The notes beneath the pieces are model-generated. The model saw only the letters and a program-made list of their open reading frames with translations, ran no database searches and was not told where the DNA came from. From a virus: a stretch of DNA of 64,000 bases. Location: IMG/VR virus record IMGVR_UViG_3300009164_000039; one strand, written 5' to 3'. The number at the start of each line of letters is the position of its first letter. Position 1 is the stretch's first letter. Below, piece by piece: positions 3,995 to 59,353 of the stretch. A program made the translations under genes and the position numbers.

Positions 3995-4304
3995 ATCCTC
4001 AACATGGCAACCACCGGTACCTGAATATCGGGTGTACTATGACAAGTCTGGAACCATAACAACCAAAACAACAGCACCATTGATAGGTGACTATATTGTG
4101 GTGTCTAGAGAAATGTATGACAGCATTGTGATGCACACACAGTGGCATGTGATAAATGGACAAGTTGAAATAAGACCGGTTGTGGAAATCCCACGTCATA
4201 TGTTACAATACACAGCTGAAGGCCCGTACCGATCACTGCCAGGAAATGCTATATTTTTGGTAGATGACGATTATGCTGGCTCCACTGATAATTGGACAAT
4301 ATGA
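3951..4304 (+). CDS. Hypothetical protein
   Basis: ORF overlapping both neighbours in operon. Confidence 0.6.
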   Translation: MHMNKDYPNLITAFESSTWQPPVPEYRVYYDKSGTITTKTTAPLIGDYIVVSREMYDSIVMHTQWHVINGQVEIRPVVEIPRHMLQYTAEGPYRSLPGNAIFLVDDDYAGSTDNWTI

Positions 4305-5191
4305 AAACTGTAGACATTGCAGACCTAGATGTAATTTTTCTAACCTACGACGAACCTCGCAGAGAAGAGTCATGGGCCAAAATCAAAAACATGGTACCTT
4401 GGGCCAAGCGTGTGGATGGCATAAAAGGCAGTGATGCCGCACACAAAGCCGCAGGTGCGGCCAGCGATACAGATCGCTTTATACTAATTGACGGCGACAA
4501 TATTCCTGACCCAGAGTTCTTTAACAAACAAATCACACTGGATCCACATCATGAAAGATGTGTGTTGCGTTGGAGAGCAAGAAACGCCATCAACGGACTC
4601 ATGTACGGCAATGGTGGACTCAGCTCGTGGACCAAAAGTTTTGTAGAAAGCATGCGCACACACGAAGCCACTGATGGTCGTAATGAAACACTGGTGGAGT
4701 TTTGCTTTGAACCTGACTACTGGGCCATGCATGACTGCTACTCAACCACGTATCCTAATGCCAGTCCATTTCAGGCCTGGCGAGCAGGCTTCCGTGAAGG
4801 TGTTAAAATGTGTCTGGATCGCGGAGCAAGACCCAACTTGGACGAGTTTGAAAAACGTGCCCACAATCGTAATCTTGATCATTTGACCATTTGGCAAAGT
4901 GTGGGTGCTGATGCAGAGAATGGCTTCTGGGCCATATACGGTGCTAGACGTGGCACACAAATGACCATGCTTACAGACTGGGATTACACCCAGGTACAAG
5001 ACTTTGATGAACTGGCAAAACTTTGGACTGTGTACCAAAATGACGGCCCTGACGAATGCACTGAAGTAGGCAACATGCTACGCAAACGCCTGGGACTTAA
5101 CATTGTGGATCTAGACCCCGAACCCAGTGCATTTTTCAAACATCACTACAAGTCAAATTTTGTCAATAGAGGAATAATGAGTCGTGAGTAA
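4292..5191 (+). CDS. Glycosyltransferase-like protein (GT-A-like)
   Basis: DVIFLTYDEP start, FILIDGDN DxD motif, AWRAGFREGVKM segment. Confidence 0.65.
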   Translation: MDNMKTVDIADLDVIFLTYDEPRREESWAKIKNMVPWAKRVDGIKGSDAAHKAAGAASDTDRFILIDGDNIPDPEFFNKQITLDPHHERCVLRWRARNAINGLMYGNGGLSSWTKSFVESMRTHEATDGRNETLVEFCFEPDYWAMHDCYSTTYPNASPFQAWRAGFREGVKMCLDRGARPNLDEFEKRAHNRNLDHLTIWQSVGADAENGFWAIYGARRGTQMTMLTDWDYTQVQDFDELAKLWTVYQNDGPDECTEVGNMLRKRLGLNIVDLDPEPSAFFKHHYKSNFVNRGIMSRE

Positions 5192-6566
5192 AAGTGATTT
5201 CATGACAGCCGCAGAACAAATGCGCCACACACTAGGCGAAGGTCTTTGCTTGGCCAAATGGAAACAGGTTAGCTTGCACTTGCCCACAGGATTGAACAAT
5301 TCATGCTATCATCCTCCACTACACAAGATTCCTGTGGAACTGCTAGCAGGCAATCCTGGCGCACTGCACAATACTCCACATAAAAAAGCTCAGCGCAAGA
5401 TCATGTTGAAACATGAACGTCCAGACGAGTGTAGTTACTGCTGGTCAGCAGAAGACAATGGACAACTCAGTGACAGGCACTACAGGTCAGGCGAGGAGTG
5501 GGCCGCAGAGGATCTTGACAAGATATTGGCCTCAACCGGAGACGAAGATGCATTACCTAGCTATGTGGAAGTTAATTTTAATCATGCTTGTAATCTTAAA
5601 TGTAGCTATTGCAGTCCGCAATTTAGTTCAAGCTGGGCCGCTGAAGTTGCACAACATGGCGGATTCCCTACGTCCAGCCCTCACAATAGTCCTGAGTATT
5701 TTACTGGTAGTCGTCGCCCTATTCCTGCCCGAGAACACAACCCCTACGTTGATACCTTCTGGGAATGGTGGCCAGAGCTGTACCCCAAGCTAAGACATTT
5801 TAGAATGACAGGTGGTGAGCCACTGATGGATCACAATACCTATCGTGTGTTTGAATACGTGCTGACCTTGCCGCATCCATTGTTGCATTTGGATGTGACC
5901 AGCAACTTCAGTGTGGAGCCTGTGTTGTTTGAAAAGTATCTTGGCTATGTCAAACAGTTATGCAACACACAGATTGAACACTTCATGCAGTATGTGAGCC
6001 TGGACACCTGGGGCAGTCAAGCAGAGTACATACGCAATGGCATGGACTTTGTGAGAGTGTGTGACTATGTGGAACGCTATTTAGAGGAAGTACCCAATCG
6101 CAACAGCCTTACGTTTATCATGACCATGAACAATCTCAGTGTCACGGGCATGCATGACATGCTGGATTGGATACTGGAACTACGTGCCAAGTACAGTAAA
6201 ACATATCAGCGTGTGTGGTTTGACACACCGTTGCTGAGACAACCACGTTGGCAAAGCCTGCAGATACTGCCGCCTGCGTATGCCAACAGAATGAAAATAA
6301 ACCTAGAGTTCATGCGAGCACACCTAATCACAGATGATAGTTTTGTGGGATTCAAAGATTATGAAATACAGCGCATGGAACGAGACATTGCCTGGATGAC
6401 TGAGCCACAAGACGCACAAGAAGTCAATCATGCACGTGCTGACTTCTATAGATTCTTCAACGAACACGACCGTAGACGCGGTACTAACTTTTTACAAACA
6501 TTTCCAGAGATGAGCCATTTCTGGTGGGAATGCAAACATCATGCCGAAACTGAACAACGAAACTGA
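5184..6566 (+). CDS. Radical SAM protein 1 (N-terminal Cys/His auxiliary domain)
   Basis: CNLKCSYC motif, TGGEPL; N-terminal CLAKW..SCYHP..CSYCW. Confidence 0.9.
   Translation: MSKSDFMTAAEQMRHTLGEGLCLAKWKQVSLHLPTGLNNSCYHPPLHKIPVELLAGNPGALHNTPHKKAQRKIMLKHERPDECSYCWSAEDNGQLSDRHYRSGEEWAAEDLDKILASTGDEDALPSYVEVNFNHACNLKCSYCSPQFSSSWAAEVAQHGGFPTSSPHNSPEYFTGSRRPIPAREHNPYVDTFWEWWPELYPKLRHFRMTGGEPLMDHNTYRVFEYVLTLPHPLLHLDVTSNFSVEPVLFEKYLGYVKQLCNTQIEHFMQYVSLDTWGSQAEYIRNGMDFVRVCDYVERYLEEVPNRNSLTFIMTMNNLSVTGMHDMLDWILELRAKYSKTYQRVWFDTPLLRQPRWQSLQILPPAYANRMKINLEFMRAHLITDDSFVGFKDYEIQRMERDIAWMTEPQDAQEVNHARADFYRFFNEHDRRRGTNFLQTFPEMSHFWWECKHHAETEQRN
5548..5793 (+). CDS. Putative overprinted 2-TM membrane protein (81 aa) in +1 frame of radical SAM 1
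   Basis: GGAG 6 nt upstream of ATG 5548; two hydrophobic helices; host frame locally shifts to T-ending codons. Confidence 0.45.
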   Translation: MHYLAMWKLILIMLVILNVAIAVRNLVQAGPLKLHNMADSLRPALTIVLSILLVVVALFLPENTTPTLIPSGNGGQSCTPS

Positions 6567-7896
6567 TATAGAATTCAAACGCAGAGTGATTGACATCAAG
6601 TCAACCAGCTTCTGCGGAGCCAAATGGTACAATGCTACCATATGGTTGGGTAGTGGACAAACAACCAGCTGCCACCACCCACCTGCACACTCAATTGACT
6701 TGCAAGAAATAAAAACCAATCCTGCCGCACTGCACAATACCACTCGTAAAAAAGCTGATCGTGAAATGATGCAAAAAGGTGAACGCCCAGCAGGCTGTGA
6801 ATACTGCTGGAAGATAGAAGACATGGGCCCTGAGTCTGTCAGTGACCGTGTGTACAAAACTGTAATACATTCCGAGGAGGACCTAAATGTTGCATTTGCC
6901 AGACCCAGCTACACAGACTTCAACCTTCGCACGTTGGAAATTGCGTTTGACAGAACTTGTCAGTTCGCTTGTTCTTATTGCAACCCTGCTTTTAGTAGCA
7001 CATGGGTTAAGGACATTGGTAATAACGGGCCATACACAGGATTGGTATCTGACGGCAGGAACCATTTTACTCACGCTCATGATAGTAGTCAACTGTATAA
7101 ATTCAATGAAGTTAATCCGTACGTGGAAGCATTCTTCCAGTGGTGGGAAACAGATCTCCACCAGACACTAACAGAGCTTCGCATCACCGGAGGCGAGCCA
7201 CTCATGTCAGGCTACACCTGGCAGCTGATTGACTGGTTCAAAGCCAATCAAGGCAAGAGCCATACCAAACTGGCCATCAACAGCAATCTTGGCATGGAGC
7301 CGGTCAAGATGCTGGATTTTATTCGGCGTGTGGAAGGTATTCCGCATCTGGAAATCTACACCAGCAACGAAGCACTGGGCGCACAAGCAGAGTATATTCG
7401 TGACGGATTGAATTACCGGCAATGGCTCAGCAACATGGAGATGTTGATCAATTCAGGCGCAGTAAATCAAATGCATGTGATGTGTACAGTCAATGCATTG
7501 TGTCTGGAAAGCCTGCCTGAATTTTTAGATGAATTGGTTGTGTTGAAGAAAAAGTACAGCAGAGACTTTCCTAACTTCACGTTGAACATCTTGCGTTTTC
7601 CTAGTTTTCAAAGTCCACTGGTATTACCATATGAGATTAGACAAAAGCATGCAGACCGCCTGGCACAGTTTTTGGTACGCCACAAAGGACAAAACTACTT
7701 GCATGAGCATGAGATAAACCACGTGGAACGTCTAGTAAAGTATTTGCTTGAAGTAGATACACCTCATGCAGAAGCATTTGAAATGCCTAAATTGTTGAAT
7801 GACTTCCGACAGTTTTATATCCAATATGATCAGCGCCGCGGAAAAAACTTTGTAAATACATTCCCGGCTCTCAAGGATTGGTATGAAACACTCTAA
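6541..7896 (+). CDS. Radical SAM protein 2, paralog of protein 1
   Basis: CQFACSYC, TGGEPL; N-terminal CGAKW..SCHHP..CEYCW. Confidence 0.9.
   Translation: MPKLNNETDIEFKRRVIDIKSTSFCGAKWYNATIWLGSGQTTSCHHPPAHSIDLQEIKTNPAALHNTTRKKADREMMQKGERPAGCEYCWKIEDMGPESVSDRVYKTVIHSEEDLNVAFARPSYTDFNLRTLEIAFDRTCQFACSYCNPAFSSTWVKDIGNNGPYTGLVSDGRNHFTHAHDSSQLYKFNEVNPYVEAFFQWWETDLHQTLTELRITGGEPLMSGYTWQLIDWFKANQGKSHTKLAINSNLGMEPVKMLDFIRRVEGIPHLEIYTSNEALGAQAEYIRDGLNYRQWLSNMEMLINSGAVNQMHVMCTVNALCLESLPEFLDELVVLKKKYSRDFPNFTLNILRFPSFQSPLVLPYEIRQKHADRLAQFLVRHKGQNYLHEHEINHVERLVKYLLEVDTPHAEAFEMPKLLNDFRQFYIQYDQRRGKNFVNTFPALKDWYETL
6887..7171 (+). CDS. Putative overprinted 2-TM membrane protein (94 aa) in +1 frame of radical SAM 2
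   Basis: GAGGAGG at 6874..6880, 6 nt before ATG; two hydrophobic segments. Confidence 0.5.
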   Translation: MLHLPDPATQTSTFARWKLRLTELVSSLVLIATLLLVAHGLRTLVITGHTQDWYLTAGTILLTLMIVVNCINSMKLIRTWKHSSSGGKQISTRH

Positions 7897-9097
7897 GACA
7901 TTTTGCATATTGCCATGGATACATCTTCATGCATTCCCTGATGGCCGTGCGTATCCTTGTTGTATGGGAGAATATCACTCACCCATTGGCGATCTTAAAA
8001 CACACACAATGGAGCAGGTGTGGAATCAAGCGCCACTAGCTACCATGCGAAAGAACATGCTACAGAATGTCAAGTCCAAAGAGTGTGTCAAATGCTATGA
8101 GCTAGAAGAAAATGGTTTTGTCGGCATGCGACAAAGCATGAACCGTGCGTTTGCACATCACATGCCATTGGCAGATCAAACACTTCCTGATGGCACACTG
8201 CCTGACTTTCGACTACGCTACTATGACATTAGATTTAGTAATCTGTGTAATTTCCGTTGCCGCAGTTGTGGCAGTGTGTTTTCCAGCAACTGGTATGATG
8301 ACGAAGTTGCCGCACATGGTCAAGTACAGCATCCCAAGATCATGTTTGCTGGCCAACACAAACAAGACATGTGGGAGCAAATGCAACCGCATATACCACA
8401 TCTAGAACAAGTGTACTTTGCAGGCGGCGAACCCTTGATCATGGAAGAACATTATCGTGTGCTAAAAGAACTAGTACAGAGAGAAATGTTTGATGTCAGA
8501 CTGGTATACAACACCAACTTTAGTGAATTAGATTTCAAAGATGAAAGTGTACTGGAGTTATGGAAACTGTTTAAGAATGTCAGCGTTGGTGCTAGTCTAG
8601 ACGCCAGCGGCACACGAGCAGAGTACATTCGCAAAGGCACAGTATGGCACAAGATTGTACACAATAGAGAACGCATGTTGTCTGTGTGCCCTCAAGTTGA
8701 CTTCTATATAAGTAGTACCGTGGGCATACTAAATGTATGGCACTTGCCAGACTTTCATCGTGAATGGGTTGACTTGGGATTGATACGCCCGCAAGATTTC
8801 AACATCAACATGTTACAATCACCTGAATGGCAACGTGCAAATCATCTGTCACCGGAGTTGAAACAACAAGTGAAAGAACGCATACACAATCACCTTGAGT
8901 GGCTTGGTCCATTGGATCACATGAATCGTGCAACCAATGGTTATCGGAGTATTATAAAGTTTATTGATCAACCTGCTGATGCAGATCAACTAAAAGAGTT
9001 TTTTAGAGAAACTGATCAATTTGATCAAATACGCAATGAGAGTTTTGATGCTACCTTTCCTGAACTGACTGGATTGAGAGACCATGCTACCAAATAA
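7883..9097 (+). CDS. Radical SAM protein 3 with N-terminal SPASM/Twitch-like domain
   Basis: CNFRCRSC, AGGEPL; CILPW..YPCC..CVKC. Confidence 0.9.
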   Translation: MKHSKTFCILPWIHLHAFPDGRAYPCCMGEYHSPIGDLKTHTMEQVWNQAPLATMRKNMLQNVKSKECVKCYELEENGFVGMRQSMNRAFAHHMPLADQTLPDGTLPDFRLRYYDIRFSNLCNFRCRSCGSVFSSNWYDDEVAAHGQVQHPKIMFAGQHKQDMWEQMQPHIPHLEQVYFAGGEPLIMEEHYRVLKELVQREMFDVRLVYNTNFSELDFKDESVLELWKLFKNVSVGASLDASGTRAEYIRKGTVWHKIVHNRERMLSVCPQVDFYISSTVGILNVWHLPDFHREWVDLGLIRPQDFNINMLQSPEWQRANHLSPELKQQVKERIHNHLEWLGPLDHMNRATNGYRSIIKFIDQPADADQLKEFFRETDQFDQIRNESFDATFPELTGLRDHATK

Positions 9098-10298
9098 CAA
9101 TATATGTGTGCTACCGTGGATGAGCATAGAAGTAACCCCAATGGGTAACAGTCGCCCGTGTTGTTTGGCCATTGATGAAATACCAGACAACACTGGTAAA
9201 TCCTACGACCTTACCGCAGTGCCTATTCGTGAAGTATATCACAGCAAATACATGCAGGATCTAAGGCAACAGTTTCGTGCAGGAGAAAAACCCAGCACAT
9301 GCACACGATGCTGGACAGAAGAATCTGCAGGACGTACCAGCAAACGTATGAACATGTTGGCCAAATTCAACAATGATATCCAATCAATTGAATGGGACAC
9401 AGACACCCCTGAACAATTATGGTTCTTGGATCTTAAACTAGGCAACATCTGTAATCTCAAATGTCGTATCTGTGGATCCTGGAGCAGTAGTAAATGGGCA
9501 CAAGAAGAACTAGACTACTACCCAACAGCCACTAGAGAAGAACGCAAAAAACATTCAGCGTATGTATGGCTACGTCAGGGTCAGTGGCCACGTGAAAGCA
9601 TTGACTTTTGGAACAACATTGATCAAGTGCTGCCTGGTGTGCGCTACTATGAATTTACCGGTGGCGAACCATTCTTGATTCAAGAACATTTTGATTTGTT
9701 ACAACGCACAGTAGATCAAGGCTATGCATATCTTGTGGATGTACACTACAACACCAATGGCACACAGTATCCAGAAGCCGCAGTGGAGATGTGGAAAAAG
9801 TTCAAGCATGTGAACATTGCATTCAGCATTGACGATCTTGGCGCACGATTTGAATATCAGCGTTATGGCGCCAACTGGGCAGAAGTGGAACAAAATCTAG
9901 ACCGTTACTTAGAGTTAAGCAAAACACACACCAACATCACGCTACAAATGTGTATAACTGCAAATATACAAAACGTATTGTACTTGCCTGAAGTCATGGA
10001 CCATGTGTGGGCAAAAGGTTTTCGTGACGTATACATCAACATGTTACATGATCCAATTCAACTCAACATCAAGCAAATGACTCCAGTGGCGATTGAACTG
10101 GTATGTAACAGACTAAATCAAGTTCCGACCAGCAACAGATTCTATCGTGATTTCCAACAGTTAATAACGGTGATACAAACAGGTACTGGTAGTGATGGTC
10201 AAGAGTTTTGCAAAACTATCAAACAAGGTGACGTGTATCGCAAACAAAATTTTGCTGACCATCACCCAGACATAGCAAAGGCCATGGGATATGAATAA
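9084..10298 (+). CDS. Radical SAM protein 4 with N-terminal SPASM/Twitch-like domain
   Basis: CNLKCRIC, TGGEPF; CVLPW..RPCC..CTRC. Confidence 0.9.
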   Translation: MLPNNNICVLPWMSIEVTPMGNSRPCCLAIDEIPDNTGKSYDLTAVPIREVYHSKYMQDLRQQFRAGEKPSTCTRCWTEESAGRTSKRMNMLAKFNNDIQSIEWDTDTPEQLWFLDLKLGNICNLKCRICGSWSSSKWAQEELDYYPTATREERKKHSAYVWLRQGQWPRESIDFWNNIDQVLPGVRYYEFTGGEPFLIQEHFDLLQRTVDQGYAYLVDVHYNTNGTQYPEAAVEMWKKFKHVNIAFSIDDLGARFEYQRYGANWAEVEQNLDRYLELSKTHTNITLQMCITANIQNVLYLPEVMDHVWAKGFRDVYINMLHDPIQLNIKQMTPVAIELVCNRLNQVPTSNRFYRDFQQLITVIQTGTGSDGQEFCKTIKQGDVYRKQNFADHHPDIAKAMGYE

Positions 10299-11448
10299 AG
10301 TTATCCCGTTGGTTAATGTTAGTGCATTGCAAGCCCTGACGCCCGCACCTCTTGGTCGCGCAGAGGTTGACTCTGACTACATGACACGGTATATACAAAC
10401 TGGAATGGATTTTAACAAGGATCTTGGACTAGCAGGCAAATATTGTTATCACCCATTTAACACAGTCACGATAGACCATCGAGGTCGTTGCTATGTATGC
10501 ACCTGTCAGGCATGGTTACCAATCAGCGTAGGTAACATTTTAGATTTTAATTCGCTGAGTGAAATTGTTCACAGCTCACGTGCTAGAGAGATACAACGAA
10601 GTATCGTAGATGGCAGTTATCGTTACTGTGACAATAAAACTTGCGGGTTATTAATCAGCGACGCAATGGAAACTAGAATTGAGCACAAACCAGACACTGT
10701 GAATTGGATCAATTTCTGTATCGATGACAGTTGCAACTTACAGTGTCCTAGCTGTCGCACAGATTTAATATTTCATAAACAAGGTCCAGAATTTGATCTA
10801 CGTATGAAAATATCACAGCATGTGAGCAAGCTGATCAGCGAACACAATCATTTTTTACGATTTACACTAAGCAACGATGGGGATCCATTTGCTAGTCATG
10901 TGTACAGAAACCTAATGACAACTATTGCGCCACAACTGGTCAATCAGCTGGAGATTGAAATAGTAACTAACGGCATATTAATGAAGTCACATTGGCACGA
11001 AATTGAAAACATATACCCTAACCTCACACTAATCAAAGTCAGTTTTGATGCTGCCACCGAACAAACATACAACAAAACACGATGCGGCGGCAGTTGGAAC
11101 AAAGTAACTGAAAGCACTAGATTTGTAGCTGATTGGCTGGCTCAACGCAAAGCACAGCATCTCAATGCATATACTAGATTGGTAGCTAATTTTGTAGTGC
11201 AACAAACAAACTATCATGAGATGATTGACTTTGTAACACTGTGCAATTCGTTGGGTGTTGATCAGATCTTGTTTCAAAAAGTAACTAACTGGAATACGTG
11301 GATTGATGCCAACGGCACAGATCAGTACAGCGCACATGCAGTATGGCAACAGTCGCATCCTGAATATCACAAGCTGAAAGAAATACTAAAAGATCCTGTG
11401 TTTCAACAGCACAATGTTAAACTAACTAACCTAGCGGATCTACTATGA
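10291..11448 (+). CDS. Radical SAM protein 5 (divergent, DGDPF instead of GGEP)
   Basis: CNLQCPSC; CYHPF..CYVCTC..YCDNKTC; NDGDPF. Confidence 0.88.
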   Translation: MNKVIPLVNVSALQALTPAPLGRAEVDSDYMTRYIQTGMDFNKDLGLAGKYCYHPFNTVTIDHRGRCYVCTCQAWLPISVGNILDFNSLSEIVHSSRAREIQRSIVDGSYRYCDNKTCGLLISDAMETRIEHKPDTVNWINFCIDDSCNLQCPSCRTDLIFHKQGPEFDLRMKISQHVSKLISEHNHFLRFTLSNDGDPFASHVYRNLMTTIAPQLVNQLEIEIVTNGILMKSHWHEIENIYPNLTLIKVSFDAATEQTYNKTRCGGSWNKVTESTRFVADWLAQRKAQHLNAYTRLVANFVVQQTNYHEMIDFVTLCNSLGVDQILFQKVTNWNTWIDANGTDQYSAHAVWQQSHPEYHKLKEILKDPVFQQHNVKLTNLADLL

Positions 11449-12734
11449 ACAAACCTGATTCGTTATGCTTGGCTCCTTGGACACACACATATCTTAGTCC
11501 GCAGACTGAGCGCCGCATGTGTTGTGCAAGTCGCGAGCCTGCACAAAACTTTCAACAGTATATTGACACCAGCGCCGGTTCTGGCAAGTATATACCTATC
11601 ACTCTGGACGAACATTGGAACGGTGACCACATGCGCTCCGTACGAAAACGCATGCTGTCCGGCGAAACATTACCCGAGTGCGAAGTATGTAATGATAAAC
11701 TGTTGAATACCTCTGTGTATAGAGATTACTTCACGCACTTGTTTGCACACAAACTTGACCAAGTACATGCCAGTACAGATGACACCGGGCACACTACAAT
11801 GCAACCGATCAGCTGGGACTATAGATTTAGTAATCTTTGTAATTTCAAATGTCGCATGTGTGGAGACATGTTGAGCAGTGCATGGGAAAGCGAGCAACGT
11901 GTACATGGCATGATAGATTGGAACAATCCAAAGAACAACTGGATGAAGCCAGTCATACGCGATGAAATACATCAGTTTCAAACCACGCAGGTTGAACATG
12001 AGTTCAGTCAGGCAGTTGAAGAACATCGTGTTGAGGAGATATATTGGGTGGGTGGCGAACCCTTGATGTACGAACAACATTGGAAGTACATGAAAAGAAT
12101 AATTGAATTAGGGGACGGACCAAATGTCTATGCAAGATATAATACAAATCTCAGCCGTGTTGATTATCGCGGTGTCAATCTTTATCGGGATATTTTATCT
12201 GGGTTACGGGATTGGCAAATCTGCGCATCGCTCGACGGAACAGGTAAAATTGGTGAGTACATTAGATCAGGTCTCGACTTCGATGCTTGGCTTGAGAACT
12301 TCGCTCAAGGAGTTGCGATTGCGACTAATCCTAGACAGATGCGAATCGACTACACCCTTACCCTGCCAGGAATGTTTGAGGTTGAACGGATTGAACGACT
12401 GTCCGCAACCTACGGAGTACAAGTTCTGGCGAAGGTAGTTTTTAGTTTCAGTCCGGACATAGTTATGTCACCTTTAGCCCTACCTCGGGACATGTTACAC
12501 TCTTGGGTAGATGAAATACTTTCTGTGGTGAAGACCGACTCGTTAAAGGATATCTTGGTTCAGCTGAAAACTAGACCTACGTTTGCGGAACAGTGGCCCG
12601 ACCAATATCAAACAGCACTGCGCCGTGGTAAAGACCGTGTGTTGAAATTAGAAAGCATACGAGACAATCCTATCACAATGGCAGAGATATTGAGTGAACG
12701 ATCGGATGTATTGCACTGGTGGAATAACATATGA
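11445..12734 (+). CDS. Radical SAM protein 6 with N-terminal SPASM/Twitch-like domain
   Basis: CNFKCRMC, VGGEPL; CLAPW..MCC..CEVC. Confidence 0.9.
   Translation: MNKPDSLCLAPWTHTYLSPQTERRMCCASREPAQNFQQYIDTSAGSGKYIPITLDEHWNGDHMRSVRKRMLSGETLPECEVCNDKLLNTSVYRDYFTHLFAHKLDQVHASTDDTGHTTMQPISWDYRFSNLCNFKCRMCGDMLSSAWESEQRVHGMIDWNNPKNNWMKPVIRDEIHQFQTTQVEHEFSQAVEEHRVEEIYWVGGEPLMYEQHWKYMKRIIELGDGPNVYARYNTNLSRVDYRGVNLYRDILSGLRDWQICASLDGTGKIGEYIRSGLDFDAWLENFAQGVAIATNPRQMRIDYTLTLPGMFEVERIERLSATYGVQVLAKVVFSFSPDIVMSPLALPRDMLHSWVDEILSVVKTDSLKDILVQLKTRPTFAEQWPDQYQTALRRGKDRVLKLESIRDNPITMAEILSERSDVLHWWNNI
12124..12438 (+). CDS. Putative overprinted single-TM protein (104 aa) in +1 frame of radical SAM 6
   Basis: AGGGG/GGA upstream; N-terminal TM (IIQISAVLIIAVSIFIGIFYLGYGIG), Leu-rich helix, Cys-rich tail. 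Confidence 0.4.
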   Translation: MSMQDIIQISAVLIIAVSIFIGIFYLGYGIGKSAHRSTEQVKLVSTLDQVSTSMLGLRTSLKELRLRLILDRCESTTPLPCQECLRLNGLNDCPQPTEYKFWRR

Positions 12735-13492
12735 TATTATTAAGTTCTGGCGATAGCTTTACATATGGCAACGAGCTCAGTGATGACAACCCTGCACGTG
12801 CTAGTAACAACACATGGTCGGCGAACCTAGCAAAACATTTTGGGTTTGAGCACCAGTGTGTGGCCAAAGGCGGCGCCGGCAACGACTATATTTCTAGATC
12901 ACTCATAACACAGGCCAATGAACTTCGTAAAAAAAGCAAACAGTTTGCAGTAGCGGTAATGTGGACCTATCCTGGACGCATTGAATTAAAAGTTCAGTCC
13001 GAGTGGCACCAACTAAACGATTATGTATTTTGGGATTCGACTGAAAAACTACAAGCACAGTGGCCCGATAAAGGTGAAAAATTTTATGCATCAATACTAG
13101 ACAGAATTCAAAAAGACCGAGAAGCAAATCGATTGGATTTGTTCAGAGACTATATGAAATTTACGGTGTTAACTGGTGACTATGCAATAGTAAAATCTTA
13201 TCAAAGTATATTTGTTACCGCACAATATCTAATGCATCATGAAATTCCTTTCTTTTTTGTAAATGCAGTTGACGAGGCAAACATCACTGGAAATTACATA
13301 CCTCAGGACAGTTTGCCTTACCTGGACAGCATTGACCAGCAAGACTGGATGCCTGTTCCTAGTTTCTATTCCTGGGCAAAAGAAAATAATTATAAATTTG
13401 GGTCAGCACACCCATTGGATCGAGCACACACAGATTACGCTAAACTGATACTAGCTACAGGATTGGTAGAAACAAAATGGCAATTAAAGTAG
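12731..13492 (+). CDS. SGNH/GDSL hydrolase-like protein
   Basis: SSGDSFTYG block I, GAGND block II, HPLDRAH C-terminal. Confidence 0.7.
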   Translation: MILLSSGDSFTYGNELSDDNPARASNNTWSANLAKHFGFEHQCVAKGGAGNDYISRSLITQANELRKKSKQFAVAVMWTYPGRIELKVQSEWHQLNDYVFWDSTEKLQAQWPDKGEKFYASILDRIQKDREANRLDLFRDYMKFTVLTGDYAIVKSYQSIFVTAQYLMHHEIPFFFVNAVDEANITGNYIPQDSLPYLDSIDQQDWMPVPSFYSWAKENNYKFGSAHPLDRAHTDYAKLILATGLVETKWQLK

Positions 13493-14571
13493 TATTACGA
13501 AACCCATTGGATCAGCAAGATCTAATAGACTATGACATTGTGCCCGATGACACATTGTTGGCACATGACTGGCAACAGGCACTAAAAGAACTGTTAGTGC
13601 AAGGTCGCATGCTGGAAAAGAACTTTTGTTTTCTCGGCTTTCCTGGCACTGCACGTACACTTGATTACATCTGCAAAGAATTAAACGAATGCGTGTACGA
13701 TGTCAATGCTATGGATTGGCAGTCAGTTGGACTTGCACCGTATATAATTGAAGAGTGGTTCACACCTGACTCAGTTAGATTTGGTTTAGAATATCCCTGT
13801 GAGCTAACCGATACCAGCCTAGGATTATCAGTCAAACACGAAGTAATGAACAAACTGCACAATCATTTTGAGAGACTTCAAGGCACTGTATGGTCACCTA
13901 GTGAGTATTATACTCAGGCCACTCCAACTGTTAAGTATGCAATTAGACAACTCAACACACTGTGCCATGAAATTGAATCTCTGGTGCTGAGCCAACGCAA
14001 GGCATATCGTTTGCCAGAATGGGTACGCCCAAGCCAAATTACTACGTTTATCAGCGCACCAAGATACGATCTTAAAGATCGGCATCGTGAAGGATTTGTT
14101 ACCAATGGATATGACAGAAAATTTGGACATGTGTACATGCACTGGGCACAAATTGGCAAAACACTGTTTGAAGTATTTCGTGATGAGCATGCACCAGAAC
14201 TAACTGATACTGTATGTGAAGCAATCACTCAATTGAAATACTATTCCGGTGAATTTGACATTGAATGGGGACGAGATGTAGTACGTACAGGCGACTTTCC
14301 GTGGCACGTGGAAGAACAGGATCGTTTTGAAAAATGGTTGATACAAAACAACATAGATCCAAAAAATCCTGCAATGAGCTCAGGATATTTGCCATTGGGA
14401 CAGGTAGAATTACAACAGAGTTTTGGCACAACCGATATTGGCACCATTTGGCAAATACTCAGCACACACCTGGATATATACAGTATCGAGGTAGACGGAG
14501 TTGTTCAAACATATGATTACTGTTGGAGCGATACTGACTACAAGCAGTCGCAGATCAGGAGACTACTATGA
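13477..14571 (+). CDS. Hypothetical protein
   Basis: 364-aa ORF overlapping neighbours; no motif recognised. Confidence 0.75.
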   Translation: MAIKVVLRNPLDQQDLIDYDIVPDDTLLAHDWQQALKELLVQGRMLEKNFCFLGFPGTARTLDYICKELNECVYDVNAMDWQSVGLAPYIIEEWFTPDSVRFGLEYPCELTDTSLGLSVKHEVMNKLHNHFERLQGTVWSPSEYYTQATPTVKYAIRQLNTLCHEIESLVLSQRKAYRLPEWVRPSQITTFISAPRYDLKDRHREGFVTNGYDRKFGHVYMHWAQIGKTLFEVFRDEHAPELTDTVCEAITQLKYYSGEFDIEWGRDVVRTGDFPWHVEEQDRFEKWLIQNNIDPKNPAMSSGYLPLGQVELQQSFGTTDIGTIWQILSTHLDIYSIEVDGVVQTYDYCWSDTDYKQSQIRRLL

Positions 14572-14667: not shown

Positions 14668-15360
14668 ATGAAAAAAATACTTGTTCTAGCCTGTAGTAGC
14701 GGATTGGGCGTCGAATGCGAAGATGTAATCAATCATTGCTGGCCCAACATACTAGGAGACCTTACTAACACCGCAGTAACCAATGCCTCTGAAGCTGGCG
14801 GTAGCAATGACATGATGTATCGCAAAGCACTGTCAATGACTGCAACTGAATCGTATGACCTGGTATTGATTGCATGGACAAACATTGATCGCATGGAAGT
14901 GTATTTTAACGAAGAGATTGTGTCTAATAGATTACCTGACGTACTAATCAGTGAAAAATTTCCTCGTGTGCAAGGACCTGGGCCAGTCAGTGTGTCTCAT
15001 CATTGGAGTGACTTGCCTTGGATTGAAAAATACTATGGCATGCACTATAATGAACGTTACTTACTAGAGCGATGGTTGCACCAAGCAATCACACTTCAAG
15101 AATATTTCAAAGCCAAAAAACAGCCATTTGCTTACATATCAAACTTTGGAAACACTCAGTATCTAAAAAATCATACAGACATTCCTATGTTAAAGATGCT
15201 GGATGTAAAATCTTGGATTGGTAACTGGCCTGGGTCAACTTTACGCGACTGGGGTGCACCAATTGGCGTACACAAATATGGTCATTTTACGTTAGACGCA
15301 CATAAATTTATTGCAGAAAAAATACATGAGCATATTAGGAATCGCGGCTGGCTTTCATGA
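14668..15360 (+). CDS. SGNH-like protein (degenerate block I)
   Basis: ASEAGGSNDMM, VLIAWTNIDR, GHFTLDAH resemble 12731..13492. Confidence 0.5.
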   Translation: MKKILVLACSSGLGVECEDVINHCWPNILGDLTNTAVTNASEAGGSNDMMYRKALSMTATESYDLVLIAWTNIDRMEVYFNEEIVSNRLPDVLISEKFPRVQGPGPVSVSHHWSDLPWIEKYYGMHYNERYLLERWLHQAITLQEYFKAKKQPFAYISNFGNTQYLKNHTDIPMLKMLDVKSWIGNWPGSTLRDWGAPIGVHKYGHFTLDAHKFIAEKIHEHIRNRGWLS

Positions 15361-16807
15361 TGCCGCACTAGCGGTAATTGACAAGCATGGGGACATTGTA
15401 TTTGCTGGACACAGTGAGCGTTACAGCAAAATCAAACACGACAAAAATTTATCGCCAGGCTTGATTGCCGAAGTATGCAAATTTGATATACATGAAATAG
15501 CATATTATGAACGTCCTTGGGCACAACAGTTGCGTAGATTGTACACCGGCGAAGGAGTAGAGTGGAACAAGCTCACAGTCCGGCAGATATTAAAAAAACA
15601 AATTAACGAGTTCAGTGCATTCTCTGGACCAGTAGTAGCATATCCGCATCATCTGAGTCATGCGGCAGCAGGATTTCAAACAAGCCCATTTACCCGTGCC
15701 ACAGTGGTTGTGATAGACGCTGTAGGTGAATGGGACACAATAACCATCTGGGGCGCAGAATACGATCGCAATGGACACGCACAGTACAAGAAGTTATGGC
15801 AACAAGGTTACCCGCATAGTATAGGATTGTTCTACAGTGCAATGACCCAGCGAGTAGGGTTGAAGCCCCTGGACGAAGAATACATTTTGATGGGCATGGC
15901 AGCGTATGGTGAGCGTGGCTTTGGTGACCTATTAAAAATGGACATGATAGAATCAGAATTTGACATTCGATTCAAACACAATCTACACACTGGTATAGAT
16001 AAAAAATATCTAGCCTACATCAGTGACTTTGATATAGCTGCCGGCGCACAAGATCTTGTGGAAACACTCATACTCAATGTTATGCTACGTGCTAAGAAGT
16101 TTGGGTGGAGTAGCAATCTGGTGTACGGTGGAGGTGTTGCGCTCAACTGTGCCGCCAATAGATTTTTAGGAGAATATTTTGATAACATTTGGATTATGCC
16201 TTGTCCTGGTGATGCTGGTTCTAGTCTGGGGGCCGCCGCTGTTAGTTTCCGTGGTTGTATTAATTGGACTGATGCTTGTCTTGGGCATGATATACCTGGC
16301 GACTATCCTGTTAATGATGCCGTGGCTGCTCTTTTGCGTGGTGATATTATTGGTGTGGCGAGCGGTCGAGCCGAGTTCGGCCCGAGAGCGTTGGGAAACA
16401 GAAGTCTCCTCGCAGACCCAAGAGGAACAGAAATCAAAGACAAAGTAAATGAAATCAAACGTAGACAAAAGTTTAGACCCTTTGCACCCGTTGTATTGGA
16501 AGAGATGGCTGATCAGTATTTTACTATGCCTCGCGGGTGGGATCGCAGTCGGTACATGCAGTCAGTCGCTGACTGTAGGCATCCTGAGTTATTTCCTGCT
16601 ATTGTTCACGCTGACGGAACTAGTCGTGTTCAGACCGTACCGAAAGATGGAAGCGGAATTAGAGAGCTCCTTGAAAAATGGTTCGTGTTAACTGATTGTC
16701 CTATGTTGCTAAACACCAGCCTAAACATACGTGGCGAACCTATGGTCAATGATCGTGCTGACGCAGACCGCTTTGAAAAGTTATATGGCATAAAGGTCTA
16801 CAGTTAA
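15326..16807 (+). CDS. Carbamoyltransferase, NodU/CmcH family
   Basis: ILGIAAGFHDAA, HHLSHAA, GGVALNC, GRAEFGPRALGNRS, RPFAP, DGTSRVQTV, LLNTSLN. Confidence 0.95.
   Translation: MSILGIAAGFHDAALAVIDKHGDIVFAGHSERYSKIKHDKNLSPGLIAEVCKFDIHEIAYYERPWAQQLRRLYTGEGVEWNKLTVRQILKKQINEFSAFSGPVVAYPHHLSHAAAGFQTSPFTRATVVVIDAVGEWDTITIWGAEYDRNGHAQYKKLWQQGYPHSIGLFYSAMTQRVGLKPLDEEYILMGMAAYGERGFGDLLKMDMIESEFDIRFKHNLHTGIDKKYLAYISDFDIAAGAQDLVETLILNVMLRAKKFGWSSNLVYGGGVALNCAANRFLGEYFDNIWIMPCPGDAGSSLGAAAVSFRGCINWTDACLGHDIPGDYPVNDAVAALLRGDIIGVASGRAEFGPRALGNRSLLADPRGTEIKDKVNEIKRRQKFRPFAPVVLEEMADQYFTMPRGWDRSRYMQSVADCRHPELFPAIVHADGTSRVQTVPKDGSGIRELLEKWFVLTDCPMLLNTSLNIRGEPMVNDRADADRFEKLYGIKVYS
16179..16448 (+). CDS. Putative overprinted multi-TM protein (89 aa) in +1 frame of carbamoyltransferase
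   Basis: AGGAG at 16168..16172, 6 nt before TTG; about 60 hydrophobic residues then a charged tail. Confidence 0.5.
   Translation: MITFGLCLVLVMLVLVWGPPLLVSVVVLIGLMLVLGMIYLATILLMMPWLLFCVVILLVWRAVEPSSARERWETEVSSQTQEEQKSKTK
16449..16691 (+). CDS. Putative overprinted 2-TM protein (80 aa), translationally coupled to 16179..16448
   Basis: TAA-ATG abutment; hydrophobic WLISILLCLAGG..ILSYFLLLFTL. Confidence 0.45.
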   Translation: MKSNVDKSLDPLHPLYWKRWLISILLCLAGGIAVGTCSQSLTVGILSYFLLLFTLTELVVFRPYRKMEAELESSLKNGSC

Positions 16808-57444: not shown

Positions 57445-58047
57445 TTATTCCAGTTCGTCAAGCCATTTTGTAATGACATTATGAAGTTTTTTGTTACCTG
57501 TTTCGTCCAAGTGACAAGTGTTGCCATAATGTTTTTTCAATAAATCGTTAATGTTAAATGAGTCGGGCAACATATCGTACTTGTGCTTGGTAGCATAGTT
57601 CTCAATGTGAAACTGATTCAAGTGAGGATAGTTACTTAGTATACTTAAAATTTCCCAGCAACACAAGTTTGCCATATCCTTTTGATAATCAAAGTCAAAG
57701 TAACGTTCGTAAAATTTGGCCGCAACATCTGCATCTGCATTGTTTGCCGCATGATCTTTGATATCTGCATAAATCAAATCTGCGTTGTGATGTAGTGGAT
57801 CCTTGTGATGTACAGGATGAACTGTACAGTACAAACGATTTGGACTGGCATGTGATACAATCACAGCATCAAATTGATTGAAGTCTGTTGACTGCACTTG
57901 TTTGAGTATCTTGTACTCGCCAGCACCAGCTTGCGCAATGTTAGTTACCAAGTGATTAGCAGCCAACCAATTGCACCAGCCACTGCGTTCTGGATACTTG
58001 ATGCTCCAGTCGGCTGCAAAGCTGTCTCCGCAGATTAAAATTTTCAT
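57445..58047 (-). CDS. SGNH/GDSL-like protein
   Basis: ICGDSFAA, AQAGAG, CHLDETGN. Confidence 0.65.
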   Translation of the reverse strand: MKILICGDSFAADWSIKYPERSGWCNWLAANHLVTNIAQAGAGEYKILKQVQSTDFNQFDAVIVSHASPNRLYCTVHPVHHKDPLHHNADLIYADIKDHAANNADADVAAKFYERYFDFDYQKDMANLCCWEILSILSNYPHLNQFHIENYATKHKYDMLPDSFNINDLLKKHYGNTCHLDETGNKKLHNVITKWLDELE

Positions 58048-58624: not shown

Positions 58625-58653
58625 ATTATACAGTTTGTTTTAGGAATTAGCAA
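58625..58653 (-). promoter_or_regulatory. Sigma70-type promoter TTGCTA-N17-TATAAT
   Basis: Upstream of GGAGG SD of 58603. Confidence 0.65.
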
Positions 58654-59353
58654 CACGTAACTTTGCTAATCTTACCATTTCAAATAATTTGATATACATC
58701 CAGCCTATGTCAAATTCAAACCAGCGCCTGCTTAGCCTTGCATTAGCAGGGTCCAGATGATGATTATTGTGAAGCTCTTCACCGCCAATGACAATGCCAA
58801 TAGGAACCAAATTTCTACTTCTATCTCTAGTTTCTCCATTTCGATACCCCCACCAGTGTGCAACTCCGTTGATGACTCCCGCGGCCCAGAACGGAATCCA
58901 TATCATTTGAATGCCCCAGATCAATGGTCCCCACCAGCCAAATATCAAGGTGTTGAGCACAAGGAGAATGCCAATGCCAAGTCTGGAGTGAGCACTGTAT
59001 ACGTTGTGCTCCATCCAATCAGCAGGAGTACCACGACCGTATGAATCAACCATTGCTTTATCTTTTGATGCTTCATGATATAATACCGCTCCCCTTGTGA
59101 ATACTTTCCCAATACCAAACACATGCGGTGAGTGTGGATCACCGTCTTTGTCTGAGTACTGATGGTGCTTGCGATGTATGGCCACCCATTGCTTGGTGAC
59201 CATGCCTGTAGTGAGCCACAGCCAAAAGCGCATGAAGTGCGCTAGCACAGGATGGAATGTCACTCCACGGTGCGCTTGGCTACGATGTAAGTATAGTGTG
59301 ACACACACAATGGTAATGTGCGTGGTCACGAGTGTGTAGATAATTTCGTTCAT
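58640..59353 (-). CDS. Membrane fatty-acid (acyl-CoA delta-9-like) desaturase
   Basis: His boxes HRSQAH, HRKHH, HNNHH; DPHSP; FDIGW. Confidence 0.92.
   Translation of the reverse strand: MNEIIYTLVTTHITIVCVTLYLHRSQAHRGVTFHPVLAHFMRFWLWLTTGMVTKQWVAIHRKHHQYSDKDGDPHSPHVFGIGKVFTRGAVLYHEASKDKAMVDSYGRGTPADWMEHNVYSAHSRLGIGILLVLNTLIFGWWGPLIWGIQMIWIPFWAAGVINGVAHWWGYRNGETRDRSRNLVPIGIVIGGEELHNNHHLDPANARLSRRWFEFDIGWMYIKLFEMVRLAKLRVANS

Follow-up and report, generated by a model that had tools for sequence, protein, structure and literature searches.

The analysis of a 64,000-nucleotide stretch of virus DNA (IMG/VR virus record IMGVR_UViG_3300009164_000039; hereafter the window) indicates that two consecutive genes for paralogous radical SAM enzymes, gene 1 and gene 2, each appear to conceal a second gene: the open reading frames (ORFs) designated ORF1 and ORF2 are most likely genuine genes for proteins, overprinted on their hosts in the +1 frame, a reading to which a probability of roughly 0.77 is assigned. 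On comparison with related phages, selection is seen to keep the +1 frame free of stop codons, to keep two helix-length blocks of it hydrophobic, and to preserve a Shine-Dalgarno (SD) sequence plus ATG at its 5' end. ORF1 (5548-5793, + strand, 81 amino acids) begins with an ATG at 5548 in gene 1, preceded at a distance of 6 nucleotides by an SD-like GGAG (5538-5541, +), and its frame is already open from an earlier ATG at 5413 (126 amino acids). ORF2 (6887-7171, +, 94 amino acids) begins with an ATG at 6887 in gene 2, preceded at the same distance by an SD-like GAGGAGG (6874-6880, +), both SD motifs being read from the sequence. Both ORFs cover the CxxxCxxC motif of their host, which starts at codon 135 in gene 1 (counted from 0) and codon 139 in gene 2, and the product of each has two hydrophobic stretches predicted to be helices: in ORF1 approximately residues 4-23 (5557-5616, +, over a host strand and the CxxxCxxC loop) and 43-61 (5674-5730, +), and in ORF2 approximately residues 24-41 (6956-7009, +) and 53-71 (7043-7099, +). 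The positions and frames of the two ORFs, their SD motifs and the two hydrophobic stretches of each are as the original prediction described them from the letters of the window, and gene 1 does have, at host codons 129-137, the run of T-ending codons that it singled out (GTT AAT TTT AAT CAT GCT TGT AAT CTT).

ORFs of this size are unremarkable in the window, where alternative-frame ORFs of at least 60 amino acids are common (60 ORFs are listed in 16 kb, some 17 of them real genes), and the case for ORF1 and ORF2 therefore rests on their relatives. The open +1 stretches are longer than those in synonymous codon shuffles of their own hosts (P = 0.007 for gene 1, P = 0.003 for gene 2), a single-sequence test that gives moderate support before correction for multiple testing. 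On the opposite strand, an antisense ORF of 92 amino acids (6883-7161, -) lies exactly under ORF2.

Orthologs were collected from related jumbo-phage contigs in IMG/VR, each being assigned by its best match among the six radical SAM paralogs of the window at 55% identity or more, which yielded 122 distinct sequences for gene 1 and 109 for gene 2, in 87 and 74 effectively independent clusters (lineages), respectively. The orthologs have a median pairwise amino acid identity of 66-68%, and their identity at four-fold degenerate sites (0.36) is near the floor set by composition. Because synonymous sites are thus saturated, third-position conservation must be kept by selection rather than inherited. 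Expected values were obtained by permuting each sequence's own codons among positions of the same amino acid, and stop codons were counted over 123 (gene 1) and 110 (gene 2) sequences.

Stop codons in the +1 frame are depleted, by a factor of 4-5, only where the ORFs lie. In gene 1, the ratio of observed to expected stops is 0.23 over codons 120-149 and 0.48 over codons 150-179 (0.23-0.58 in finer windows); in gene 2, successive ratios over codons 120-209 are 0.18, 0.24 and 0.57-0.58 (0.19-0.29 in finer windows over codons 120-199). Outside the ORF region, the ratio is 0.7-1.2 in both genes. With one sequence taken per cluster, the ORF2 region is fully open in 57% of 74 lineages versus 1.5% expected, and the ORF1 region (codons 121-201) in 29% versus 3.5% expected, its core (codons 126-185) being open in 60%. 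The +2 frame and two of the antisense frames are enriched in stops; the codon-aligned antisense frame is mildly depleted (0.53-0.58), because A-ending host codons have been lost. A test that does not depend on T was made with valine and leucine codons of the form NTx followed by a codon that starts with G, in which A at the third position creates TAG in the +1 frame and G creates TGG (tryptophan). In all lineages of gene 1, the ratio of A to G at such sites is 20:66 in the ORF region versus 629:472 outside it (odds ratio 0.23, P = 9e-10), and in all lineages of gene 2 it is 26:113 versus 612:415 (odds ratio 0.16, P = 3e-20), with no significant shift in the same region of paralogs 3 and 4. This asymmetry between A and G is avoidance of stops specifically.

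The excess of T at the third position of host codons (T3) is limited to two blocks of about 20 codons per gene, separated by a gap of about 18 codons without excess: codons 120-143 (+0.12 to +0.25) and 162-179 (+0.14 to +0.19) in gene 1, and codons 126-155 and 174-191 (+0.14 to +0.19 in the latter) in gene 2. The blocks match the positions of the two predicted helices in each ORF, all four of which have T3 excess. In the blocks, four-fold sites have a pairwise identity of 0.5-0.7, versus a background of approximately 0.32, and at codons 138-149 of gene 2 this identity reaches 0.64-0.70. Position 3 of a host codon is position 2 of the +1 codon, where T specifies phenylalanine, leucine, isoleucine, methionine or valine, C specifies serine, proline, threonine or alanine, and A or G specifies polar or charged residues or a stop. 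At four-fold sites in the blocks, T rises to 0.58-0.62 (background 0.30; in the helix 1 block of gene 1, 0.62 versus 0.30 in the rest of the gene), A falls to 0.11-0.14 (background 0.34) and G to 0.07-0.08 (background 0.15), and C is unchanged at 0.19-0.21. Such a composition fits a membrane helix; selection for U-rich RNA would have produced a different one. At least two helix-like Kyte-Doolittle windows are found in the +1 frame of 64% of lineages of both genes, compared with 7-9% of shuffles, and in only 5% and 2% of orthologs of paralogs 3 and 4, respectively. Avoidance of +1 stops (0.18-0.29 of expectation in the ORF region, with the accompanying A-versus-G asymmetry) and depressed synonymous variation over the overlap were the two signs that the original prediction expected to see among homologs of real embedded genes, and both are present.

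Initiation signals were scored as a +1 ATG at the 5' end of the ORF with an SD-like tetramer 4-16 nucleotides upstream. Among lineages with an open frame, the fraction that has both is 0.85 for gene 1 (0.42 expected from shuffles) and 0.60 for gene 2 (0.13 expected); among interrupted lineages, it is 0.34 and 0.26, respectively. At the SD site of gene 1 (host codons 114-119), four-fold identity rises to 0.50 and T3 is in deficit. Most open sequences of gene 2 have a +1 stop at host codon 114 and, directly after it, a methionine at codon 115 or 116, which argues for separate initiation and not for frameshifting. Thus, by their enrichment over synonymous shuffles, ORF1 and ORF2 both have predicted initiation signals of their own.

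The predicted products of ORF1 orthologs are mostly of 67-68 amino acids, with a stop at host codon 188, or of 81-93 amino acids, and the common 67-residue form ends directly after helix 2. They start near host codon 121, often with Met-Lys-Met, which is forced by Asp-Glu-Asp in the host protein. The products of ORF2 orthologs are mostly of 93-99 amino acids, with a basic N-terminus and a basic tail, and an alignment-based AlphaFold2 model of ORF2 has helices at residues 7-44 and 51-85. Neither peptide has a cysteine near its N-terminus, and so both lack the lipobox of an o-spanin (Rz1-like) protein; nor do they match a known holin family, the best holin match being phrog_1299 with a non-significant E-value of 0.52. 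When 1.8 billion representative proteins were searched with a profile of the ORF2 peptides, 33 hits were returned. Sequences were read for 11 of these, and proved to be embedded ORFs of the same phage family, gene 1 peptides (E-value approximately 1e-4), or chimeras of host and +1 frames, and one hit, on a 1.8-kb contig with only the +1 ORF called, was uninformative. That no free-standing homolog was found among the hits read fits an origin de novo by overprinting. Prediction of a complex between the ORF1 and ORF2 peptides returned a score of 0.00 with no verdict, and is evidence neither way. Two public metagenome gene calls (P0020 and P0026) pass from the host frame of gene 2 into the frame of the +1 peptide, and P0026 switches back; these chimeras are probably assembly indels rather than real frameshift variants.

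Related sequences that carry the same motif provide controls. In 88 orthologs of paralog 3 and 53 of paralog 4, there is neither stop depletion nor T excess at CxxxCxxC. The original prediction had cautioned that T-rich codons also occur at this motif in paralogs 3 and 6; that caution is not borne out across relatives, there being no T3 excess in orthologs of paralogs 3, 4 and 6. The sole homolog in an isolated phage, a protein of Ralstonia phage RsoM2USA (36% identity), has no +1 ORF, its +1 frame being closed and non-hydrophobic. In the window, gene 13477-14571 contains a +1 open stretch of 70 codons (13991-14200, +) that is unusual in the single sequence (P = 0.013). The +1 frame of this gene has no stop depletion across 49 sequences, and the stretch is a chance ORF that serves as a negative control.

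Several results weigh against ORF1 and ORF2 being genes. At least one +1 stop occurs in the core in 35 of 87 lineages of gene 1 and 31 of 74 lineages of gene 2 (about 40%), parsimony on the protein trees needs 21 and 19 changes of state, respectively, and 20 of the 99 loci that have both host genes (not de-replicated) have neither ORF. The AlphaFold2 model is only moderately confident (mean pLDDT 65), most conserved residues of the peptides are forced by host codons, searches of PHROGs, Pfam and the ESM Atlas with both peptides gave nothing above noise, and there is no free-standing homolog among the 11 of 33 profile hits that were read. In addition, the link between open frame and T3 excess is partly circular, as T-ending codons cannot make +1 stops. 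Stops in close homologs were the outcome that the original prediction would have taken as a refutation, and they do occur in a sizeable minority of lineages, but the T excess and the SD sequence are gone from those lineages too: lineages with at least two stops have blocks no different in composition from the remainder of the gene, and most of these lineages lack the SD. This pattern fits loss of a dispensable gene and not absence of a gene. The remaining loci of the 99 have both ORFs (47), ORF1 only (10) or ORF2 only (22), and joint retention has an odds ratio of 4.3 (P = 0.002, with no correction for phylogeny). Since many lineages have lost one or both ORFs, the peptides are evidently dispensable.

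The foremost alternative is that the +1 frame yields no product and owes its openness and hydrophobicity to local codon choice in the host, whether for translation speed, for Fe-S insertion near CxxxCxxC or for U-rich RNA. T3 excess and openness would then coincide automatically, and the host residues cysteine, asparagine, phenylalanine, tyrosine, histidine and serine already bias the +1 frame toward hydrophobicity, such that 60% of paralog 3 orthologs have one helix-like window by default. Codon choice does not, however, explain why paralogs 3 and 4 and the RsoM2USA homolog have the motif without the bias, why A3 and G3 are depleted but C3 is not, why A3 is avoided relative to G3 exactly where A makes a stop, why the excess falls in two blocks with a neutral gap between them, or why an ATG with a purine-rich SD is over-represented immediately upstream, and it is considered unlikely. 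The same enrichment of SD plus ATG counts against programmed +1 ribosomal frameshifting, by which the twitch domain would be fused to a membrane hairpin and no separate peptide would be made. The chimeric gene calls P0020 and P0026 are what frameshifting might leave behind, but assembly indels would explain them as well. Of 110 sequences of gene 2, 58 have a +1 stop immediately before the ATG, at host codon 114, upstream +1 stops are common at codons 94, 113 or 114 of gene 1, and no conserved slippery site is apparent, although no search aimed at one was made. Frameshifting is accordingly given very little weight.

It is less probable still that the selected frame is that of the antisense ORF at 6883-7161 (-). 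This ORF overlaps ORF2 and antisense stops are mildly depleted, but the depletion falls far short of that in the +1 frame and is a consequence of losing A-ending codons; no antisense ORF of at least 60 amino acids is present in the region in gene 1, and the SD-ATG signal is on the plus strand. That both frames are open by chance, without any selection, is scarcely credible: alternative-frame ORFs are abundant in the window, and the similar-sized one at 13991 is not conserved, but a fully open frame in more than half of gene 2 lineages is far beyond expectation, and shared ancestry is ruled out as the cause of open frames by the synonymous saturation of the orthologs. On balance, the comparisons across relatives support the original prediction of hidden two-helix ORFs in both genes.

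If ORF1 and ORF2 are genes, translation would begin within the operon mRNA at the internal SD-ATG, and the products would be helical-hairpin peptides of 67-99 amino acids that insert into the inner membrane of the host cell, a membrane role suggested by hydrophobicity only. As a guess, held at a little under even odds, the peptides may serve the operon's enzymes as small adaptors or tethers at the membrane, because their expression is tied to the enzymes and because there are three further conserved embedded ORFs in the operon. A holin-like or other membrane-permeabilizing late function is a guess of distinctly lower probability, and the remainder of the weight goes to some other effect on the host membrane. 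Each of genes 1 and 2 has the other as its closest paralog (33% identity), and the layout of their ORFs relative to CxxxCxxC is the same; thus, the overprint probably predates the duplication that gave rise to them. A broader proposal, considered unlikely as a whole, is that an ancestral overprint was duplicated with its host, that both copies were kept while their hosts diverged to the point of synonymous saturation, and that together with the three additional ORFs they would constitute a concealed membrane module in a widespread family of freshwater jumbo phages, acting either as a membrane scaffold for the operon's pathway or as a lysis set of the holin/spanin type.

In this phage family, overprinting appears to be habitual in the operon, for three more embedded +1 ORFs pass the stop-depletion test, which raises the prior for ORF1 and ORF2. 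One of them (12124-12438, +, 104 amino acids), in paralog 6 (11445-12734), is very strongly conserved, with 8 +1 stops versus 156 expected over codons 240-279 in 77 sequences, only 2 versus 89 expected over codons 260-279, and a ratio of 0.33-0.43 up to codon 319; it has no T3 excess from host codon 260 to 299, and its PHROG matches are weak (phrog_3671, E-value 0.0095; an Rz-like spanin, E-value 0.46). The other two (16179-16448 and 16449-16691, +) are consecutive +1 ORFs in the carbamoyltransferase gene (15311-16807), in which +1 stops across 68 sequences are 0.13-0.20 and 0.19-0.25 of expectation, respectively, and are enriched at the boundaries of the ORFs (1.46 and 1.40).

Further open stretches were observed in other genes of the window. 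The gene upstream of paralog 1 (4292-5191, +) has +1 stop ratios of 0.39-0.61 over codons 20-99 and 0.44 over codons 160-179 in 68 sequences, but its longest +1 open stretch in the window, of 79 codons from 4647 (P = 0.057), lies outside those codons. Gene 58640-59353 (-) has a 98-codon +1 open stretch (P = 0.007, single sequence) and, in 66 sequences, ratios of 0.29-0.51 over codons 80-139 and 0.35 over codons 180-199, which are ambiguous because the expected counts are small; it could hold another embedded ORF, outside the operon. In the +2 frame of gene 57445-58047 (-), a 57-codon open stretch was matched by none of 300 synonymous shuffles.

The host genes belong to a set of six tandem radical SAM genes at 5184-12734, five of which fall in NCBIfam NF033640, a family of radical SAM enzymes with a twitch domain. 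Gene 1 (5184-6566, +, 460 amino acids; 320 bits, with a Pfam Radical_SAM match) and gene 2 (6541-7896, +, 451 amino acids; 301 bits) encode radical SAM enzymes with an N-terminal twitch domain, and both are assigned to NF033640 (N_Twi_rSAM) by a score above the curated cutoff of 170 bits together with the CxxxCxxC motif. The gene 1 match extends over 1750-1860 nucleotides instead of approximately 1380 in eight relatives (L025, L031, L035, L054 and L061-L064), and the protein alignment of paralog 3 has 1083 columns for a reference of 404 amino acids; some orthologs of gene 1 and paralog 3 therefore hold insertions of several hundred bases, which may be inteins, introns or extra domains. The content of the window is that of a phage, including a family-B DNA polymerase (phrog_262), an HNH endonuclease and a Nol-like carbamoyltransferase. 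Freshwater metagenome contigs match the window nearly identically and the related contigs in IMG/VR reach about 350 kb in length, the source being a freshwater phage with a genome of roughly 350 kb; no isolated phage matched the window in a megablast search.

Gene E of phiX174, which lies inside gene D, and gene L of MS2 are single-gene lysis systems, each with a hydrophobic membrane peptide overprinted on an unrelated gene in its +1 frame. As in ORF1 and ORF2, T at position 3 of the host codon becomes position 2 of the new codon. The genomes of phiX174 and MS2 are tiny and under strong size pressure, and their peptides have one membrane segment and a known role in lysis, whereas the phage described here, at about 350 kb, has no obvious need to economize, and its peptides have two helices each. 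Class II holins and pinholins (for example, S21 68) are proteins of 65-95 amino acids with two membrane helices and a charged tail. The likeness of ORF1 and ORF2 to them in size and in two predicted helices is a lead only. The Met-Lys-Met start of some gene 1 peptides resembles the dual-start motif of holins, but is dictated by the host protein as noted above; unlike holins, the peptides have no sequence match, their genes do not stand alone, and their neighbors are enzymes. No endolysin is known to be adjacent to either ORF, although no search for one was made.

The nearest parallels are the lysis genes of phiX174 and MS2 and, in phage lambda, the two-component spanin gene Rz1. Rz1 is a gene for a small envelope protein that lies wholly inside Rz in the +1 frame and is of a kind routinely missed by gene callers (PMC6139136). 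ORF1 and ORF2 likewise lie wholly inside another gene, in the +1 frame, in a tailed double-stranded DNA phage. Rz1 is a lipoprotein with a lipobox, however, and its host gene encodes its functional partner in a lysis cassette, whereas the hosts of ORF1 and ORF2 are cytoplasmic radical SAM enzymes, the predicted products are two-helix hairpins without a lipobox, and the pair is duplicated in paralogs. Overprinted accessory genes of viruses in general (PMC8227390) are lineage-restricted ORFs inside an older gene with no homologs elsewhere, and in these respects ORF1 and ORF2 resemble them. The products of such genes are usually disordered and belong to small RNA or single-stranded DNA viruses, in contrast to the predicted ordered hydrophobic helices of a jumbo phage, in which several such ORFs are present in one operon, one of them apparently duplicated with its host.

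Embedded genes have been seen as a trick of tiny genomes and are forbidden by gene callers, yet here there appear to be several in one operon of a phage of about 350 kb. If ORF1 and ORF2 are genes, the proteomes of jumbo phages would be systematically under-annotated, and the two ORFs would provide both a clean natural case of the birth of a membrane protein de novo, in which T at the third position of the host codon yields a hydrophobic +1 residue, and an instance of an overprint passed on when its host gene was duplicated. The peptides are candidates for membrane functions not yet found in these uncultured phages. What sets ORF1 and ORF2 apart from known embedded phage genes is the combination of a very large genome, hosts that are enzymes, two-helix products, duplication together with the host, and the number of such ORFs in a single operon.

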